Assembly: GCA_965601925.1 (NCBI GenBank)
Contig: OZ271854.1
Coordinates: 2,592,001 to 2,656,000 of the forward strand
DNA from: Alkalispirochaeta sp.
GTDB taxonomy: Bacteria > Spirochaetota > Spirochaetia > DSM-27196 > Alkalispirochaetaceae
Direction: 5' to 3'
DNA: 64,000 nt
Positions 33,125 to 41,729 of this stretch are shown piece after piece. The notes below the pieces were generated by a model. The model was not told the DNA's origin and ran no database searches. It was given only the letters and a program-made list of their open reading frames with translations. The translations under genes and the position numbers were made by a program. Within the stretch, counting starts at the first letter, position 1; each line of letters begins with the position of its first letter.

Positions 33125-33517
33125 ATGACACGACGACTCATCGCATCGTTGACGCTCGCCGGCGCCGCGTTTTCCGGTGTCTTTGCCGACGACGTCTTCG
33201 CACGCTACGGCGACCCGCGAGACCCCGAAGTACTGGATACGATTATTCGTGAGATTCGCGACGATTTCCTGCTTATCGACGTACGGACGGTCGAAGAGTA
33301 TGAAGAGGGGCGCATCCCCACGGCGCACAATATCGATCATCGTGAGATCGCCGGTGCAATGGTCGAGGGAGACCGAAGCAAGCCGGTCATCCTCTATTGC
33401 AGAACGGGACGGCGCAGCCGTATCGCGGCGCGAGACCTACAGAGACTGGGTTACCAGACGATTATCGACTTCGGCGGCATCAACCGATGGCGTGGAGAGA
33501 TAGAAACGGATAACTAA
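33125..33517 (+). CDS. Rhodanese-like exported protein
   Basis: IDVRT.EEY..GRIP.A, LYCRTGRRS, GGI..W. Confidence 0.92.
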   Translation: MTRRLIASLTLAGAAFSGVFADDVFARYGDPRDPEVLDTIIREIRDDFLLIDVRTVEEYEEGRIPTAHNIDHREIAGAMVEGDRSKPVILYCRTGRRSRIAARDLQRLGYQTIIDFGGINRWRGEIETDN

Positions 33518-36471
33518 TGGACGTTCACGCAGCTTATTCGCGCCTCGAATCTCGGGATCTTCCCGACTACAACGGCACCGGTACGCTCTATCGTCATAAG
33601 ACGAGCAGGGCGGAGATATTTCATCTCGCAAACGACGACCCCGAGAATATGTTCTCATTCGCCTTCGGCACCTATCCTGAGAATTCCACCGGTGTCGCCC
33701 ACATTCTCGAGCACACGGTCCTCAGCGGATCGGAGCGTTTTCCGGTCAAAGATCCCTTCTTGCAGCTCCTCAAGGGGTCGGTCAACACGTTCCTCAATGC
33801 GATGACCTATCCGGATAAGACGGTCTATCCCGCCGCGAGCCCCGTTGCCAGGGACCTCTTTAACATGATGAAGGTCTACGGCGACGCAGTCTTTTTCCCG
33901 TTACTCAAAGCGGAGCTCTTTCGACAGGAGGGACATCGTCTCCAGTTCGACGGCGACGGAGCTCTGGAACGTACCGGTATCGTCTATAACGAGATGAAGG
34001 GTAACTACTCCAGCCACGATTCGGTCGTGGGCGAGCGATGCTTTCAGTCGCTCTTTCCCGACACGATCTACCGCCACGATTCGGGCGGCGACCCCGCGGT
34101 TATCCCGGAGCTTACCTACGAGCAGTTCGTGGCGTTTCACCGGCGCTATTACCATCCGTCCAACGTGCGGATCGTGCTGTACGGCGACATCCCGGCCGCC
34201 GAGTATCTGGAGTTTCTGCACACCGAGTTTCTCTCACGTTTCGAGGCTCAACCGCCGATCGCACCGCCGGCGCTCCAGCAGCGATGGACCGAGCCGCGAC
34301 TCGTCGAGGCGACATACCCCCTCGACGGAGTTGAGGATCTCGGTCGCCGCAGTTCGGTAACCATGAACTGGCTGCTCTTTCCCGTCACCGACGCGAGGCG
34401 CGTGCTCGCGACCGCGGTGCTGTCCGATATCCTCCTCGGTCACAGCGGTTCGCCGCTGACCAAAGCGCTCGTCGATTCGGGGATCGGGCAGGATCTGTCT
34501 CCGGTCGTCGGGTTGGAGATCGAACTCCAAGAGGCGGTCTTTTCGGTCGGGCTGCGCGGTACCGACGGCGAACGCAAAGACGAAATCGAGGCCCTCGTGA
34601 TCGATACGCTGCGCCGACTGGCCGATGAAGGCATTCCCGCCGACGCGATCGAGGCGGCGCTGCGACGCGTCGAGTTCAGCAATCGCGAGATGAAAGGTGG
34701 ACCCAACGGCCTCAGAGTCATGAATCGCGCGCTGCGCGGATGGATGTACGGCGGCGACCCGATGGACGCCCTCAGTTTCGGACGCTCCATCGCCGAGCTT
34801 CGCGAGCGCCTTACCGCCGAGAAGCGCCTCTTTGAGAAGATGATCGCGGAGCTCCTCTTGGATAATCCGCACCGCTCCACCGTGGTCGTGCGGCCCGACG
34901 CTGATCAGTCGCGGCGGGAACAGGAGGCGCTGACACGGGAGTTGAACGAGCTCCGGGAGGCGCTGTCCGCCGGGGAGCGTAGCCGGATCGAGGACGAAAG
35001 CCGAGTGCTCGTGACGTTGCAGGAGACGCCCGACGATCCGGCCTCACTCGCCAAGATACCCTTTCTCCGACTCGCCGACATTCCGCAGGAGGTCCGCACC
35101 GTACCGTACGACGCCGTTGCGCTTCCTGGCGGTACCGGGAGCCTCTATCTCCACAAGGAGTTCACCAACGGCATCCTTTATGTGGACGTCGCCTTCGACT
35201 TCGGCGCGCTGTCGCCGCGCGAAGAGTCGCTTCTCAACCTCCTGGGAGCGGCGTATACCGAGGTGGGGCTGCCCGGTTTGGCTCATGATCGGCTCAACGA
35301 GCTGATCAGTTTGAGCACCGGCGGGATCTCCGCCTTCGTAAGCAATCAAACGCGATACGGCGACCTCACGCGCATACGACGGCTCTTTGTCCTACGCCTC
35401 AGGGTCCTCGATCGTACATGGCGCGAAGGGGCCGAGCTCTTTGCTCGTATCATACGTGAGCTCGACTTCTCCGACGAGCGACGACTCTCTCAGGTGCTTG
35501 ACGAGCTCATCGAAGAGATGCACAGCGCTCTCATTCCCGGTGGGCACTACTTTGCGGGGCTACGAGCCGCGGCCGGTATCAACGCGCTGGCCGGTCTCGA
35601 GGAGGAGATGAACGGTATCACGCAGCTCGCGCACCTACAGGCTTTTGCGGACGAGATGAGGAGCCGGCCCGGCCGCATCGGCGGCGAGTTGAACGCGCTC
35701 CTTTCCCGCCTCGTCAATCCGGTCGCTATGAACGTCAACATTACCGGCGAGAGCGGGGTGGTGGACGAGGTTCGAGGCTGGACGGACGATTTTGCGGCGA
35801 CGGCGGGCCTACGTTTCTCCGGTGAGGCGGCCGGTGTTCCGGGCGGCACGGTCTTCGAGGCGCCGGCGGGATACGGCGAGCGGGAGTACCTGCTCTCTTC
35901 GGCGAGCGTCTCCTACGTAACCGTCGCCTTTCCCGGCATTCTACACGGCGATCCGCTCGCCCCCGCGCAAGACCTTCTTGCGCACCTATTGCGCACCGGA
36001 CCCTTGTGGGAACGTATTCGGATGCGCGGCGGCGCCTACGGGGCCTTCGCTTCGAGCAGAACCACCGAAGGAATCTTCTCGTTCGCCAGTTACCGCGACC
36101 CTCACACGGTACGAACGCTGGAAACCTACCGTGAGGCCCTGGATGAGGTGGCCAACCGCGGGATCGACGGAGACGCGATCGAACTGGCCAAAGTGAGTAT
36201 GCTGGGGCGGGAGCTCCGCCCTTTGACGCCGCGCGACGCCGGATTCGTTAACTTTAAGCGCCGGCTGCATGATATCGACGATACCCTGCGTCAACACCTG
36301 CGCGATCGGCTGCGGGAGGTCGGCGGCGAGGACATTCGTGCCGCCGCGTCTCGGCTGCTCGGGCAGTTCGAGCGGCGTCGAGTCGTCATCCTGGGCGGTT
36401 CCGCGGGAAGCGACGAGTGGCGCGCGACCCCGGACGGAGCGCACGCACCGGTGCACGAGTTGGGAGTGTAG
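33517..36471 (+). CDS. Insulinase family M16C (presequence-protease-like) metallopeptidase
   Basis: HILEH zinc motif, FLNAMTYPDKT.YP, VYNEMKG, IRMRGGAYG, SYRDP. Confidence 0.95.
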   Translation: MDVHAAYSRLESRDLPDYNGTGTLYRHKTSRAEIFHLANDDPENMFSFAFGTYPENSTGVAHILEHTVLSGSERFPVKDPFLQLLKGSVNTFLNAMTYPDKTVYPAASPVARDLFNMMKVYGDAVFFPLLKAELFRQEGHRLQFDGDGALERTGIVYNEMKGNYSSHDSVVGERCFQSLFPDTIYRHDSGGDPAVIPELTYEQFVAFHRRYYHPSNVRIVLYGDIPAAEYLEFLHTEFLSRFEAQPPIAPPALQQRWTEPRLVEATYPLDGVEDLGRRSSVTMNWLLFPVTDARRVLATAVLSDILLGHSGSPLTKALVDSGIGQDLSPVVGLEIELQEAVFSVGLRGTDGERKDEIEALVIDTLRRLADEGIPADAIEAALRRVEFSNREMKGGPNGLRVMNRALRGWMYGGDPMDALSFGRSIAELRERLTAEKRLFEKMIAELLLDNPHRSTVVVRPDADQSRREQEALTRELNELREALSAGERSRIEDESRVLVTLQETPDDPASLAKIPFLRLADIPQEVRTVPYDAVALPGGTGSLYLHKEFTNGILYVDVAFDFGALSPREESLLNLLGAAYTEVGLPGLAHDRLNELISLSTGGISAFVSNQTRYGDLTRIRRLFVLRLRVLDRTWREGAELFARIIRELDFSDERRLSQVLDELIEEMHSALIPGGHYFAGLRAAAGINALAGLEEEMNGITQLAHLQAFADEMRSRPGRIGGELNALLSRLVNPVAMNVNITGESGVVDEVRGWTDDFAATAGLRFSGEAAGVPGGTVFEAPAGYGEREYLLSSASVSYVTVAFPGILHGDPLAPAQDLLAHLLRTGPLWERIRMRGGAYGAFASSRTTEGIFSFASYRDPHTVRTLETYREALDEVANRGIDGDAIELAKVSMLGRELRPLTPRDAGFVNFKRRLHDIDDTLRQHLRDRLREVGGEDIRAAASRLLGQFERRRVVILGGSAGSDEWRATPDGAHAPVHELGV

Positions 36472-36503
36472 CCGTCCCTGGAGACCGCACGAAAGGAGGT
36501 GAG

Positions 36504-37277
36504 ATGAGCTCAACGGTACGGTACCGATTGGAATCGTTTCTTTCCCGCAGGATCACCCTCACGGTGTCGAATGCGTTGGTTGTGATCTCCGTCGCGTTTC
36601 TGTTCTTCCTGCGCCTCGTTCCGGTCACGGAGGGATTTCGCACGGTCATCGAGGGCATCGACTTCGTGGTGTTGATCTTTCTCGCCGTGGAGTTCTGCCT
36701 CCGATTCGCCGCCTTCGGAAGGAGTTACTTTTTACGCGACTTCGGGTGGATCGATTTGCTTGCGATTATTCCGATTTTGACGCCTCTCGTCGCCCTGATG
36801 GGCGAGTTGCGCGCGTTGAGAATCGCGCGTCTCATCAGGCTGGTCCGCGTCATACGGGTAGTACGCGTCCTTAGGTCTCTTGACGAGGGCGACACACCCC
36901 ATTTGCAGATGAAGGTGCGCTTTTTCCTCGCCGTCTCATCGGCGGCAATGCTCTTTCTCCTCGCCACTGCGATGGTTATCGTCGCGTTGGTCGATCGATC
37001 GGTCGGCAGCACGCCGGGTGCCGACATCACACGTCTGTTGGATCAGATCGAGTTGGTGATCATGAGCGCAGCCGTACTCGCGGCACTCGGAATCACCGTC
37101 ACGGCGAACCACTTTCTCAAGACGCTCGTGACGGATCGAATCGTAGCGGTGAATCGCTATCTGGACTCCATCATGACCGGCGGCAATAAGTTACCCCTGC
37201 GTTCCGACGATCTCGGCGACGAGATCACCGAGCTCCAAGAGAAGGTAGGGCGCGTCTCGAGCGTTTTCGTACTGTAG
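36504..37277 (+). CDS. Voltage-sensor-like (Ion_trans S1-S4) membrane protein with no evident pore and a C-terminal HAMP-like segment
   Basis: S2 F...E...R, S3 WIDLLAIIP, S4 with 8 Arg at every third residue; RBS AAGGAGG. Confidence 0.8.
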   Translation: MSSTVRYRLESFLSRRITLTVSNALVVISVAFLFFLRLVPVTEGFRTVIEGIDFVVLIFLAVEFCLRFAAFGRSYFLRDFGWIDLLAIIPILTPLVALMGELRALRIARLIRLVRVIRVVRVLRSLDEGDTPHLQMKVRFFLAVSSAAMLFLLATAMVIVALVDRSVGSTPGADITRLLDQIELVIMSAAVLAALGITVTANHFLKTLVTDRIVAVNRYLDSIMTGGNKLPLRSDDLGDEITELQEKVGRVSSVFVL

Positions 37278-37400: not shown

Positions 37401-38063
37401 ATGAGCGGTACAGCGGTTGGTATTGCGGCGGCGCTCGCCTTCGCAGCGATGTATTTTCTTCTCAATGTGGGGTTTCTCCCAGCCCTCGTGCTTTCGGGCG
37501 GTTTGTATGTCGGGTTGGCGGTCTTCTCGGTCGTGCGGGACCGCGTGGCGCGCCAAGCGACCGGCCCGGATCGTAAGACCGCAGGTGCCGCAGGCAAGCG
37601 CACGCCGTTGAATGTGGACCTGAGCGGGCTTTCCATCACGCAAGAGGAGTTCGAGGACGCCCTTCGCGAGGGCTCCAGAAAATTGACGACGCTCAAGAGG
37701 GCGGCGGAGCGAATCGCCGATCGGAGCGTCCGCGGCAAGGCGTATGCGGTGTGCGACGCAGTGGCGCGCATTCTTCGGGATATCCGGGAGGATCCCAAGG
37801 ATCTCAAACCGGCGCGTAAGTTCCTGGGGTACTACTTGGATGCGACGGTCAAAGTGGTCGACCGTTACGCCGCATTGGCTACGAAATCGGTCGCCTCGGA
37901 CGAGCTTTCCGAGTCGTTGGAACGTGCAGAGGCGAGCCTGGATACGATCAAAGCCGCCTACGACAAGCAGCTCGCTCAGTTGTTGGAGAACGATGTGATG
38001 GATCTCGATACGGAACTACGCGTGCTTGAACAGACGATTCGTATGGAAGGACTCGGCGACTGA
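37401..38063 (+). CDS. xpaC: 5-bromo-4-chloroindolyl phosphate hydrolysis (XpaC) family protein
   Basis: N-terminal TM hairpin, DP.D...ARKFL.YYLD, DVMDLDTEL.VL; telA context. Confidence 0.85.
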   Translation: MSGTAVGIAAALAFAAMYFLLNVGFLPALVLSGGLYVGLAVFSVVRDRVARQATGPDRKTAGAAGKRTPLNVDLSGLSITQEEFEDALREGSRKLTTLKRAAERIADRSVRGKAYAVCDAVARILRDIREDPKDLKPARKFLGYYLDATVKVVDRYAALATKSVASDELSESLERAEASLDTIKAAYDKQLAQLLENDVMDLDTELRVLEQTIRMEGLGD

Positions 38064-39202
38064 TGGCGACCGGAAAAAAGAGAGGACGCCTCCCGGGGCT
38101 CGCTATTTTTCTGATCGTCGTCGCGGTCGCCGGGGTGAGTGAGCTGCTTCGCTCGCCGGCGTCCGGGGAGACGGCGCGCGAGGGCCGCGGTCTCGTCGAG
38201 GGCGTCGCGCGTATCTTCGGTGGGACGAGTGAAGTCAGCGGTCTTATCGGAAGTGAGAAGGCGAACTTTCTCAACAATCGCGAGGTGCAGGCGATTCTCG
38301 CCGATCGATACGGGCTGGAGGTCGCCTTTCGGCGCGCCGGTTCCTTCGAGATGCTCGGGCTCTCCCACGAGGGACTCGATTTTCTCTGGCCGTCCAGCCA
38401 AGTCGCATTGGAGAACTATCGCGTCGATTTCGGCTCTCCCTTGGCCGACGCGATCATCTTTAACTCGCCGATCGTGATGTATTCGTGGACTCCCGTCGTG
38501 ACCGAGCTCGGCTCGCGACGGTTGGTCGTCGCTGAAGAGGGGGTCTACCGCGCTCCGTTGGAGCCCCTCCTGCAGTCGATACTCCTCCAGCGAACCTGGG
38601 GAGATGTCGGTGTCGAGGCCGTGTTCGGACGATTCGCAATCACGAGTACCGATCCGCTGCGGTCCAACTCCGGGAATATGTTTGCGGGGCTCGTCGCAAA
38701 CACGCTCGCCGGCGGCGTGGCGCGGTCGTCCGATCTTCCGACGGTGCTTCCCGACGTCCTGGAGGTCTTCCGCGTCCAAGGACGGATGGAACACTCCACC
38801 GGGACGCTCTTTGAACGGTACCTGCAACTCGGGATCGCGCAATTCCCGCTGATCGTCGGATATGAGAGTCAGTACATCGAGTTCGCCCGCGAGAATCCCG
38901 ATTTGTGGCCCGAGGTTCGCCAACAGATCGCGCTCATCTATCCGGTACCGACGGTGTGGAGCAGCCATCCGCTGATCGCTCTCACCGAGAACGGCCGCGT
39001 GCTGTTGGAGGCGTTGGCGGACGAGGAGATACAGCAGCTGGCGTGGACCCAGCACGGATTCCGCAGCGGTGCGGTGGGAGCGCGCAACGATCCGGCGGAT
39101 TTGGGGATCGATCGCGTCGCTGAGACGGTGACGCAGGTGATGCAGATGCCGCGCCCCGAGGTCGTGTTCGAGATGATGGACGCCCTCGAGACCATACAGT
39201 GA
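38063..39202 (+). CDS. Membrane-anchored substrate-binding-fold protein of tel operons
   Basis: GSEK..FL, DFLWPS, SPIV, TDP.RSNSG, GYESQ, YP.PTVWS.HP.IAL. Confidence 0.75.
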   Translation: MATGKKRGRLPGLAIFLIVVAVAGVSELLRSPASGETAREGRGLVEGVARIFGGTSEVSGLIGSEKANFLNNREVQAILADRYGLEVAFRRAGSFEMLGLSHEGLDFLWPSSQVALENYRVDFGSPLADAIIFNSPIVMYSWTPVVTELGSRRLVVAEEGVYRAPLEPLLQSILLQRTWGDVGVEAVFGRFAITSTDPLRSNSGNMFAGLVANTLAGGVARSSDLPTVLPDVLEVFRVQGRMEHSTGTLFERYLQLGIAQFPLIVGYESQYIEFARENPDLWPEVRQQIALIYPVPTVWSSHPLIALTENGRVLLEALADEEIQQLAWTQHGFRSGAVGARNDPADLGIDRVAETVTQVMQMPRPEVVFEMMDALETIQ

Positions 39203-39254
39203 GGCGCGTCCGTCCTACCGATTCGGGCGACCATAGGAAAGGAGAGTGTACGAC

Positions 39255-40346
39255 ATGAGTGACACGACGCATAACGAAGCCGCAACGAGTGTTCAGTTGG
39301 TGGAGGTGACCAATCTGCCGCCGGAGGCGCAAAAGGAGGCGCGAAAGATCGCCGAGACGATCGACATATCCGATAGTCAGGCGGTAATTCAGTACGGCGT
39401 CGGTGCGCAATCGAAGATCTCCGGTTTTGCCGACACGATTCTGACCGAGATTCGCAACAAAGACGCCGGGTACGTCGGAGATGTGCTCGGTGGACTCATT
39501 TCGACGATTAACGACGTGGACGTCGGGGGACTCGGCGGGGAGAAGGGCGTGCTCGATCGCATGTTCGGCGGACTCAAGCGGCGCATAGAGAAGTTCATGC
39601 AGCGCTACGAGAAGCTCTCGACACAGATCGACAAAGTCGTCGGCGATCTCGATGGAGCCCGCATGAATCTCCTGAAAGACATCGCAATGCTGGATAACCT
39701 CTACGAGAAGAACATGGAGTACCTCCAGAACCTCGACGTGTACATCGCCGCGGGAAAGCTGAAGCTCGACGAGTTTCGGTCCACCGTTCTTCCGGAGATG
39801 GAGCAAAAAGCGCGCGCGTCGAACGATCCGGTCGACGCGCAGAAACTCCAAGATCTGAATCAACTCATCAACCGTTTTGAGAAGAAACTCCACGATATGC
39901 AGCTCTCGCGAATGATCGCGATTCAGACCTCTCCCCAGGTTCGACTGATCCAAAACAACAACCAGACGTTGGTCGAGAAGATTCAAAGCTCGATCCTCAA
40001 CACGATCCCCCTGTGGAAGAACCAAATCATCATCGCTATCAGCCTCTTTCGGCAGAGGCGAGCGCTCGATGTCCAGCGCGAGGTGACCGACACGACCAAT
40101 AACCTGCTCAAAAAGAACGCGGAGATGCTGAAGGAGGGGTCGATCGGCGTCGCACGGGAGAGCGAACGTGGTATCGTGGAGATCGAAACCTTGCAGAAGG
40201 TCAACACCGACCTGATCGCAACGATCGAGGAGACGCTGCAGATTCAGCACGAGGGCCGCCAAAAACGAGCCCAGGCCGAGGCGGAGCTCCAAAAAATGGA
40301 AGGCGAGCTTAAGGAACGCCTCCGTCGCGTCTCCGTCTCCGAGTAA
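39255..40346 (+). CDS. telA: Toxic anion resistance protein TelA
   Basis: YG..AQ, QT.PQ.RLIQNNN..LVEKIQSS..NTIPLWKNQ, LL.KNAEMLK. Confidence 0.93.
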   Translation: MSDTTHNEAATSVQLVEVTNLPPEAQKEARKIAETIDISDSQAVIQYGVGAQSKISGFADTILTEIRNKDAGYVGDVLGGLISTINDVDVGGLGGEKGVLDRMFGGLKRRIEKFMQRYEKLSTQIDKVVGDLDGARMNLLKDIAMLDNLYEKNMEYLQNLDVYIAAGKLKLDEFRSTVLPEMEQKARASNDPVDAQKLQDLNQLINRFEKKLHDMQLSRMIAIQTSPQVRLIQNNNQTLVEKIQSSILNTIPLWKNQIIIAISLFRQRRALDVQREVTDTTNNLLKKNAEMLKEGSIGVARESERGIVEIETLQKVNTDLIATIEETLQIQHEGRQKRAQAEAELQKMEGELKERLRRVSVSE

Positions 40347-40457: not shown

Positions 40458-41729
40458 ATGAATGACTTTTCGCTGCCGCAGATCGCGCACCTGCTCCGCG
40501 ACATTAACTCCGGACGGTATGAGGAACTCGCTCTCCGTCCGGGCTTGTCGGAGGATGAGCGCGAGCTACTATTGGCTCTCAACCAGACCCATCGACACCG
40601 CGAGGAACTGCTGCGTCAAGGGCAGGCGCGGAGTCGGCTCATCATCGATTCCACACCGGTGGCGATCTGTATCACGAACGAGAACGGCATATACGAGTAC
40701 GCCAATCCGCGCTACCAAGCCCTCACCGAGTACGATGCGACCGAGCTTATCGGACGACACTTTTCCATGGTCGTGCCTCAAGACACCGAGGAAGAGCTCA
40801 CCAATCTCCACGATGAATTCATGGGGCGTCGCTACGAGCTTGCCGGGCGCTGGCGGATCGTGTCCAAGAGTGGGCGTTCGATTCCGATCCTCGCCAATGC
40901 CGCCTATGTTATCGATATCGACGGTGAGCCGAAGAAGGTAACGTTCGTCATCGACATCACCGAGATTGAACGGGCCCACGAACAGCTTGAGCGAGAGATC
41001 GAAGAGCGACGGCAGCTCGAGCACGTTCGGAACGAGGTGGAGCGCGTGATGCAGCACGATTTACGCAATCCGATCGACGGAATTCGCACCGCCGCCGACT
41101 ACCTCTTGCAGGAAGATCTCGACGAGCGCGCCCAAGAGTTCGTGCGTCTGATGTACGACGCCGCCGTGCGGTTGCGCAATCGGATCGACAACTCCCTGGC
41201 GTACACGCGTATGCGTCAAGGGCGTTATCAGGTCCAACGGGAGCGGGTAAACATGGTGCAACTCGTTCGCGACGTCGTAAAGAGCGTGGAGGAGGCGCGC
41301 TTGGCCTACCGAGCCGAGGTCGTCACCACGTATCGGGGGGCGCCGTTAAGCGAGCAGTACGATATCGAACTGTGGGGCGAGAACGGCTTTTTGATGGATG
41401 CGATCGGCAACTTGGTCCGAAACGCGCTTGAGGCGAGTAATGCGGGAGACGTGGTGTCCATCGATGTCGACGAACACGCCCCTTCCGACGCAACGCCGAC
41501 GGTCGAGATATCCATACATAACCCCGCCGATGTTCCGAAAGAAATTCGCGCCAACCTCTTCGAAGCGTATGTTACCCACGGCAAGCGTCGCGGTACCGGT
41601 TTAGGCACCTACACTGCGCGTCTGGTGTGTGACGCGCACGACGGCTCTATCGAGGTTCGCACCGGCGAAGGAGACGGTACGACGATGACGTTGATGCTTC
41701 CCAGAGGGCGGCCCGGAGAGTTGTTGTGA
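40458..41729 (+). CDS. Cytoplasmic PAS-domain sensor histidine kinase
   Basis: PAS (YANP, ELIGRHF), H-box HDLRNP, N-box NLVRNALEA, G-box GTGLG; no TM. Confidence 0.93.
   Translation: MNDFSLPQIAHLLRDINSGRYEELALRPGLSEDERELLLALNQTHRHREELLRQGQARSRLIIDSTPVAICITNENGIYEYANPRYQALTEYDATELIGRHFSMVVPQDTEEELTNLHDEFMGRRYELAGRWRIVSKSGRSIPILANAAYVIDIDGEPKKVTFVIDITEIERAHEQLEREIEERRQLEHVRNEVERVMQHDLRNPIDGIRTAADYLLQEDLDERAQEFVRLMYDAAVRLRNRIDNSLAYTRMRQGRYQVQRERVNMVQLVRDVVKSVEEARLAYRAEVVTTYRGAPLSEQYDIELWGENGFLMDAIGNLVRNALEASNAGDVVSIDVDEHAPSDATPTVEISIHNPADVPKEIRANLFEAYVTHGKRRGTGLGTYTARLVCDAHDGSIEVRTGEGDGTTMTLMLPRGRPGELL

Follow-up and report, generated by a model that had tools for sequence, protein, structure and literature searches.

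Closest described systems

Little is settled about how bacteria sense their membrane potential, and the enzymes known to be under voltage-sensor control are eukaryotic. Hv1 and TMEM266 are stand-alone voltage sensors with a C-terminal helical element, and Hv1 carries a signature consisting of an Asp in S1 and an RxWRxxR motif in S4. Class I bacterial receptors are built as TM1, periplasmic domain, TM2, HAMP and output, a layout found in chemoreceptors, sensor kinases and membrane-bound HD-GYP proteins or cyclases. One published account names a phosphoinositide phosphatase as the example of a sensor-controlled enzyme (PMC8584932). For Ci-VSP, another study gives a triad of one Phe and two acids, F161, D164 and D186 (PMC3440755). 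A third paper describes PfAC-alpha of alveolates and the adenylyl cyclase (AC) of Paramecium, in which a six-TM channel-like module with a GXG after TM6, and possible K+ conductance, is joined to an adenylyl cyclase (PMC3283738).

The protein described here has 257 residues and is encoded in a 64,000-nucleotide stretch of Alkalispirochaeta sp. DNA (the window; contig OZ271854.1, positions 2,592,001 to 2,656,000). Like Ci-VSP and TPTE, it has a pore-less S1–S4 region and the triad positions, and its sensor aligns with that of Ci-VSP over 125 residues (VIA-align Z 10.4, rmsd 2.7); VSP likewise couples its sensor to a non-channel output. In VSP, however, the enzyme directly follows S4, whereas here two TM helices and a HAMP-like segment come after it. 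The protein is also bacterial, and its S4 has eight Arg against five in VSP. A PTEN-like phosphatase with a C2 domain after S4 is absent: Pfam returns Ion_trans alone, and the chain ends at residue 257.

Other comparisons are similarly two-sided. As in class I receptors, TM5, loop, TM6 and HAMP run in register with the TM-plus-HAMP segments of the same genome, and relatives complete the layout with an HD-GYP domain; unlike those receptors, the protein places a four-helix voltage sensor in front and has no periplasmic or output domain. Its S1–S4 is homologous to that of the bacterial six-TM channels NavMs, NaChBac and KvAP (E 2e-11 to NavMs, profile positions 5-121), but there is no pore helix or filter, and sequence matches to NavMs stop at S4. 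Most structural matches span about 120 residues. With Hv1 and TMEM266 it shares a sensor and a C-terminal helical element that could dimerise, but it has two extra TM helices and lacks the S1 Asp and S4 Trp of the signature. The alveolate fusions are likewise six-TM ion-channel-like modules joined to a nucleotide second-messenger enzyme, which in the present family is the HD-GYP domain of relatives; a distant match, P0083, pairs Ion_trans with a cyclase as they do. Those fusions are eukaryotic, in contrast to a protein with a HAMP-like segment and relatives with HD-GYP. A search of the open full-text literature, with most subscription journals outside its scope, found no description of a voltage sensor joined to HAMP or HD-GYP. 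The architecture is real, under selection and apparently undescribed: it varies the known plan of a voltage sensor that controls a non-channel output, and does so on a bacterial receptor scaffold.

Gene and protein layout

The gene (protein P0001) occupies positions 36504-37277 of the window on the + strand. A Shine-Dalgarno-like AGGAGG (36494-36499, +) lies 4 nt ahead of the ATG at 36504, a start that agrees with the N-termini of homologs. Contigs of one sample, probably the source of this assembly, are identical across the gene and do not count as independent support. Pfam finds Ion_trans alone, confined to residues 25-160 (profile 11-141 of 241, E 1.6e-10). NCBIfam has no family for the protein, and Foldseek found nothing similar at E up to 0.001. 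In the ESM Atlas, rows scoring 0.83-0.85 belong to two Spirochaetota Ion_trans clusters and one HAMP cluster, and serve as leads only.

Two AlphaFold2 monomer models (mean pLDDT 66.4 and 73.5) agree on S1–S4, a helix at 132-167, a short loop, a helix at 175-224/225, a connector and a helix at 234-256, with pLDDT below 50 at residues 228-233 and 249-257. The protein is very probably a pore-less S1–S4 sensor followed by a two-helix hairpin and a likely HAMP segment. Its anatomy is demonstrated, as are the missing pore, the conserved end point and the loss of a periplasmic domain in its subclade.

The voltage-sensor domain

The voltage-sensor domain covers residues 16-126 (36549-36881, +), as delimited by the Pfam match, structural matches and residue counts. 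It has the four-helix voltage-sensor fold, and S4 carries Arg at every third position: 103, 106, 109, 112, 115, 118, 121 and 124 (36810-36875, +). R115 and R121 are invariant in all 21 aligned clade members. The countercharges E50, D53, E63 and D84 are present, together with W82. The inner acids of S2 and S3 are equally constant, with E or D at the E63 position, D84 and D53 each in 21/21. A VIA-align search of residues 1-211 against 48,161 chains matched the sensor to Nav1.5 (Z 11.5, rmsd 2.1, 122 aligned) as well as to Ci-VSP; limited to those residues, it is silent on the HAMP fold.

The sensor departs from the canonical pattern at the charge-transfer centre. Three residues before the S2 acid, where an aromatic residue is canonical, this protein has Leu60; the position is Phe in 18/21 relatives and Leu in 3/21, this protein among them. 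The earlier note had missed this detail. S1 ends in Leu-Arg, where 8/21 relatives have an acidic residue, and S29 in S1 is invariant (21/21).

A short loop between TM5 and TM6

TM5 (residues 138-163; 36915-36992, +), assigned from hydropathy and the models, is equivalent to TM1 of a receptor. It is followed by an 18-residue extracytoplasmic loop (36993-37046, +) and by TM6 (residues 182-204; 37047-37115, +), in which E183 is kept in 20/21 clade members. Channels with six TM helices hold a pore helix and a selectivity filter between S5 and S6; this protein has neither. No re-entrant pore helix appears in either AlphaFold2 monomer model, Pfam Ion_trans_2 does not match the protein, and K+ or Nav filter motifs occur in 0/21 clade members and 0/46 members of a paralogous family (below). 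As a control, the same search found TxGYG in 6/6 channel matches. The earlier note's reading of the sequence, an S1–S4 with eight gating-type Arg followed by two TMs with no pore helix or TxGYG between them, is borne out in each part, including the modelled structures, where a pore loop could have contradicted it.

The origin of the loop can be read from its relatives. The TM5-TM6 stretch measures 80-105 residues in 13 longer members of the alignment and 17-18 in eight short ones. In a tree of sensor plus TM5 (68 rows, labelled by eye, some short rows possibly fragments), the eight proteins with a short loop group as a single clade (100/100) that branches from within the forms with a periplasmic domain (99/96). 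Both kinds fall within a 33-row clade (95/90), with nine K+ channels outside it. This nesting indicates that the loop is a derived deletion and not a decayed pore: what remains is the remnant of a periplasmic domain of roughly 80 residues, to judge from the alignments, loop lengths and tree. Among six short-loop proteins, mean identity is highest in S4 (80%), TM5 (76%) and TM6 (81%) and lowest in the loop (33%).

The HAMP-like C-terminus

After TM6 the chain continues as a HAMP-like segment (37116-37274, +), with AS1 at about 205-224, a connector and AS2 from the DEI at 239-241, and it stops right after AS2. The assignment draws on hhalign and on alignment with the HAMP of HD-GYP relatives. 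The helix-connector-helix pattern, a Gly at the start of the connector, the DEI of AS2 and the HAMP register are all present. A Pro in AS1 is a usual HAMP feature, and here it is replaced by Arg212. The two helices and the connector are conserved at 63-77% among the six short-loop proteins compared.

Profile searches give a mixed picture. Pfam HAMP (PF00672) finds no match in the protein at E up to 10, nor in any of 10 close members (the protein and its nine closest aligned relatives). In the wider 21-member alignment it matches two, both under the cut-off, and even the HAMP of the HD-GYP relatives scores 19-22 bits against a Pfam cut-off of 25. Aligned by hhalign with 41 of the 42 HAMP matches over the Pfam cut-off in the same genome, the C-terminus with TM6 reaches a probability of 86% (E 5e-6), in register; without TM6 the probability is 31% (score 19.5), a score that none of 100 column shuffles reached (maximum 17.9; reversed profile 13.0). 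TM6 and the DEI that opens AS2 line up with their counterparts in HD-GYP relatives, while BLASTP against such a relative is significant only through TM5 (E 6e-18).

The HAMP-like identity is therefore likely on the strength of profile comparison and descent, with descent the stronger argument, and the HAMP of this protein is degenerate. In some clade members the chain stops directly behind TM6, and this part of the clade can therefore do without the HAMP.

Relatives with an HD-GYP domain

A full HMM scan of 1.84 billion proteins recovered relatives of 464-636 aa that a word-index search of 7999 candidates had missed; Pfam was run on 73 of the 150 matches listed. P0032 (464 aa, partial) and P0033 (570 aa) carry Ion_trans, HAMP (E 2e-4 and 1.4e-3; under the cut-off) and HD. 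A second full-length HD-GYP form, P0169, is a 568-aa cluster member labelled Leptospiraceae bacterium (MAG), and a third, of 576 aa, is encoded in genome G236 (L079:4588-6315). These three proteins of 568-576 aa read voltage sensor, TM, periplasm, TM, HAMP, HD-GYP, and all three keep intact LHDLGK, HHExxDGxGYP and DxFDAL...RxYK motifs. In the ESM Atlas, the top rows for residues 160-350 of P0033 are HAMP clusters (0.88-0.90); the periplasmic fold is not named.

The HD-GYP relatives share the supported 33-row clade with the 257-aa protein, apart from the K+ channels. Since an HD-GYP domain follows HAMP in three relatives of the same clade, the scaffold is that of a receptor: sensor, TM, periplasm, TM, HAMP and enzyme. 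The earlier note had proposed receptor-type wiring ending in a HAMP-like segment. The wiring gains support from these relatives; the HAMP-like end holds by the hhalign match with TM6, by a score above all 100 shuffles and by descent, and stands less well where Pfam misses it and TM6 is removed. The HD-GYP domain is missing from the 257-aa protein itself. A split output was also sought, and none of the genome's six HD-GYP-like ORFs, all distant, covers the HAMP-linker part of the relatives. Across the clade the C-termini vary, comprising none, HAMP only, HAMP with HD-GYP, or HAMP with an uncharacterised domain (P0056).

Conservation and rarity

A first homolog search reduced 5697 candidates to 12 proteins. 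Besides the query these were three ordinary K+ channels and eight relatives, which measure 255-270 aa and are 60-91% identical to it. One of the eight bears the database name 'ion transporter, Spirochaetales bacterium'. Seven of them (255-257 aa) end at the same aligned column as the query; P0009, whose C-terminus departs from all others, was left out of later alignments. The same end column recurs in a 330-aa relative (44% identity) and a 345-aa relative (39%), which belong to two other families of the order, and in P0020 and P0021. The 257-aa protein is thus no local truncation, its end being shared by seven of the eight close relatives and by four that are more diverged.

The coding sequence has also been kept. 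Against the 62%-identical gene of L082, dN/dS is 0.34/1.73, or about 0.2, overall and 0.25/1.57, or about 0.16, over residues 205-257 (74% identity), ratios that are rough because dS is near saturation. By these comparisons the C-terminal end is evidently under purifying selection, and the output-less state is, as judged from the aligned genes, old and selected. The earlier note had offered a truncated sensor-enzyme as one option and had allowed that all homologs might be longer. Most relatives in fact end at or before the HAMP. The first idea survives in an evolutionary sense, with HD-GYP relatives in the same clade, but not as a local event, given the age and selection of the output-less state. 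The gene is rare: it was found in 3/99 genomes of the order, and the other 21 genomes of its own family lack it, many of these genomes being incomplete.

A paralogous family and its partner gene

The same genome encodes a 375-aa paralog of the same layout at 4933062-4934186, outside the window. It consists of a sensor, a periplasmic domain and a HAMP-like segment, followed by a short tail that is acidic and amphipathic and may resemble the CheY-binding peptides of FliM and CheZ. Among 301 genomes sampled across the phylum, 61 hold a match to its family. Of the 53 ORFs extracted, 51 are closed, with lengths of 274-411 aa, and none has room for an enzyme; eight loci of 274-297 aa also lack a periplasmic domain. 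The family's C-terminal profile aligns with the genome's HAMPs at 85-91% (hhalign) but with the C-terminus of the 257-aa protein at a probability of only 2%, and the whole-profile match between the two spans residues 36-163.

Directly upstream of the paralog stands an uncharacterised 308-aa gene at 42/52 loci, compared with 0/9 loci of the 257-aa protein's clade. Its family has no Pfam match and no clear solved relative. Tail motif and partner gene tend to occur together: among 46 cases, 31 have both, eight neither, six the partner only and one the motif only, a count in which the motif was defined after the sequences were viewed and kin are not independent. This partner gene offers a precedent for output in trans. 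The 257-aa protein lacks the paralog's tail, so the paralog's partner cannot be assumed for it. Without a periplasmic domain, an enzyme or the partner-linked tail, it is the most stripped form of the family.

Gene neighbourhood

The genes of the window run in the order M16/PreP peptidase, sensor, xpaC, solute-binding-like protein, telA and PAS kinase. An M16C/PreP-like peptidase (33517-36471, +) lies 32 nt upstream of the sensor gene and is also directly upstream of it in G024 and L082. The xpaC-like gene, the solute-binding-like protein and telA (37401-40346, +) lie downstream, and their link to the sensor is weak. The window's gene order recurs in the close relative L082/L083. Genome G236 belongs to another class; downstream of its HD-GYP form come a fused binding protein-vWA gene, xpaC and a binding protein 47% identical to that of the window. 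The latter (38063-39202) has no Pfam match and occurs at 2/8 same-family loci.

An xpaC arrangement follows the sensor at three of seven independent clade loci with downstream DNA and is absent from G023, G024, G336 and L085. Of the 11 other telA loci 10 were compared, and in all eight that come from the same family PreP directly adjoins xpaC, with no sensor between them. A strict link of the sensor to xpaC-telA was considered and rejected: telA occurs in 12/99 genomes of the order, only two of them with the sensor, and G024 encodes the sensor but no telA. Promoter-like sites before xpaC are at chance level (two found, 1.7 expected). In Enterococcus faecium, a meeting abstract connects XpaC and TelA with the way membrane phospholipids are organised and with the binding of daptomycin (PMC6811118). 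Such a membrane role would fit a depolarisation alarm, though the link is weak.

Further downstream, the soluble PAS histidine kinase (40458-41729) begins with a conserved helix-loop-helix (40458-40640) that looks HAMP-like by eye. As a complementary HAMP this N-terminus was discarded, with an hhalign probability of 2% on five homologs and a score reached by one of 100 shuffles.

Proposed function and alternatives

Some relatives bear a predicted c-di-GMP-degrading enzyme, so the family likely converts membrane voltage into a signal. We propose, at even chances, that the 257-aa protein is a stripped-down membrane-potential receptor in which S4 acts through TM5 and TM6 on the HAMP, and the HAMP on a separate putative partner. 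At the strongly negative resting potential of bacteria S4 would lie inward, and on depolarisation it would move outward. The short S4-TM5 linker would then displace the TM5/TM6 hairpin within a dimer, and the HAMP would change state just as it does in ordinary receptors. Where an HD-GYP domain follows, c-di-GMP breakdown would thereby be tuned in cis; in the 257-aa protein the HAMP itself may serve as output surface, either by binding a partner or by pairing with the HAMP of another receptor. The full gating-charge ladder and the S2/S3 countercharges are kept, and the protein probably does respond to voltage in vivo. Its signalling in trans as proposed might equally well hold or fail; no partner was found among the paralog's partner gene, the HD-GYP-like ORFs and the N-terminus of the downstream kinase.

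It is unlikely that the protein is instead a regulatory subunit that co-assembles through TM5, TM6 and HAMP with another HAMP receptor or with the paralog, lending or dampening voltage dependence. Such a role would suit a chain that stops precisely at AS2 and has nothing to pass a signal on to, in a genome with 42 HAMP matches over the Pfam cut-off and a paralog of the same layout. HAMP receptors are usually homodimers, however, no specific mate was identified, and the C-terminal profiles of the two families match weakly.

A sensor for lipid, pH, membrane stress or a ligand, or a static scaffold in which voltage is incidental, is improbable as well. The Leu at the charge-transfer position and the Leu-Arg end of S1 would be compatible with either, and the periplasmic domain of most relatives could be their main input. 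Yet the subclade that lost this domain keeps eight Arg and the countercharges, all highly conserved, which is hard to reconcile with a static scaffold.

Pore-less sensors can also conduct, as Hv1 does, and a sensor that itself forms an ion pathway of the Hv1 or omega type, with hairpin and HAMP merely dimerising, would accord with a weak sequence match to the mouse Hv1-type chain 3wkv (E 2.8e-4) and with the invariant S29. We consider this highly improbable: S1 has no D or E in residues 16-38, RxWRxxR occurs in 0/21 members, the ladder of eight Arg has no break through which ions could leak, and the HD-GYP relatives point to signalling.

No more credible is a sensor-enzyme in decay that has shed its periplasmic and catalytic domains and has no function left. 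Enzyme-bearing relatives do exist, and the sensor is missing from the eight same-family telA loci, where the flanking genes are kept. Decay is hard to square, however, with a length of 255-257 aa in seven of eight relatives at 60-91% identity, with the low dN/dS overall and in the HAMP (dS near saturation), or with the same end point in other families.

A divergent six-helix channel with TM5-TM6 as its degenerate pore, which the six-TM layout and the name 'ion transporter' might suggest, is largely refuted by the 18-residue loop, the two models, the absence of a filter motif from all 67 proteins and the poor conservation of a loop whose place is taken by a soluble domain in relatives.

If the 257-aa protein is indeed a membrane-potential receptor, the bacterial S4-HAMP family would be a direct voltage-to-signal converter. 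More tentatively, and somewhat against the balance of our expectations, spirochaetes may have a dedicated class of voltage receptors with an S4-hairpin-HAMP core and either a c-di-GMP phosphodiesterase in cis or partners in trans. The 257-aa protein would be its minimal, pure-voltage member, perhaps a depolarisation alarm beside the xpaC-telA envelope-stress genes. The HD-GYP relatives make bacterial voltage sensing directly testable, as c-di-GMP level against membrane potential, and are the best experimental entry point. As a natural minimal module, with a sensor and a HAMP and no ligand domain, the 257-aa protein could itself be used in reporter fusions and voltage-controlled bacterial circuits.

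More distant pore-less forms

Several other architectures came to light. The clade member P0056 (636 aa) has an extra cytoplasmic region of 246 residues without a Pfam match, and the region L085:5893-9719 contains a gene like it, split into two ORFs. On the 3' side of the split gene, inspection by eye suggests a K+ channel subunit and then a cyclic-nucleotide-binding protein. A third pore-less clade (99/99) comprises P0054, P0059, P0070, P0078, P0090, P0098, P0100 and P0129, of 415-524 aa. This clade combines a periplasmic domain with a long cytoplasmic region, acidic and of low complexity, and ends in a conserved amphipathic helix. Among distant matches, P0155 and P0128 join a pore-less-looking Ion_trans to C-terminal regions that are bestrophin-like or of no recognised type. 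P0083 (525 aa), on a long branch outside the 33-row clade, combines a pore-less-looking Ion_trans with a class III cyclase.
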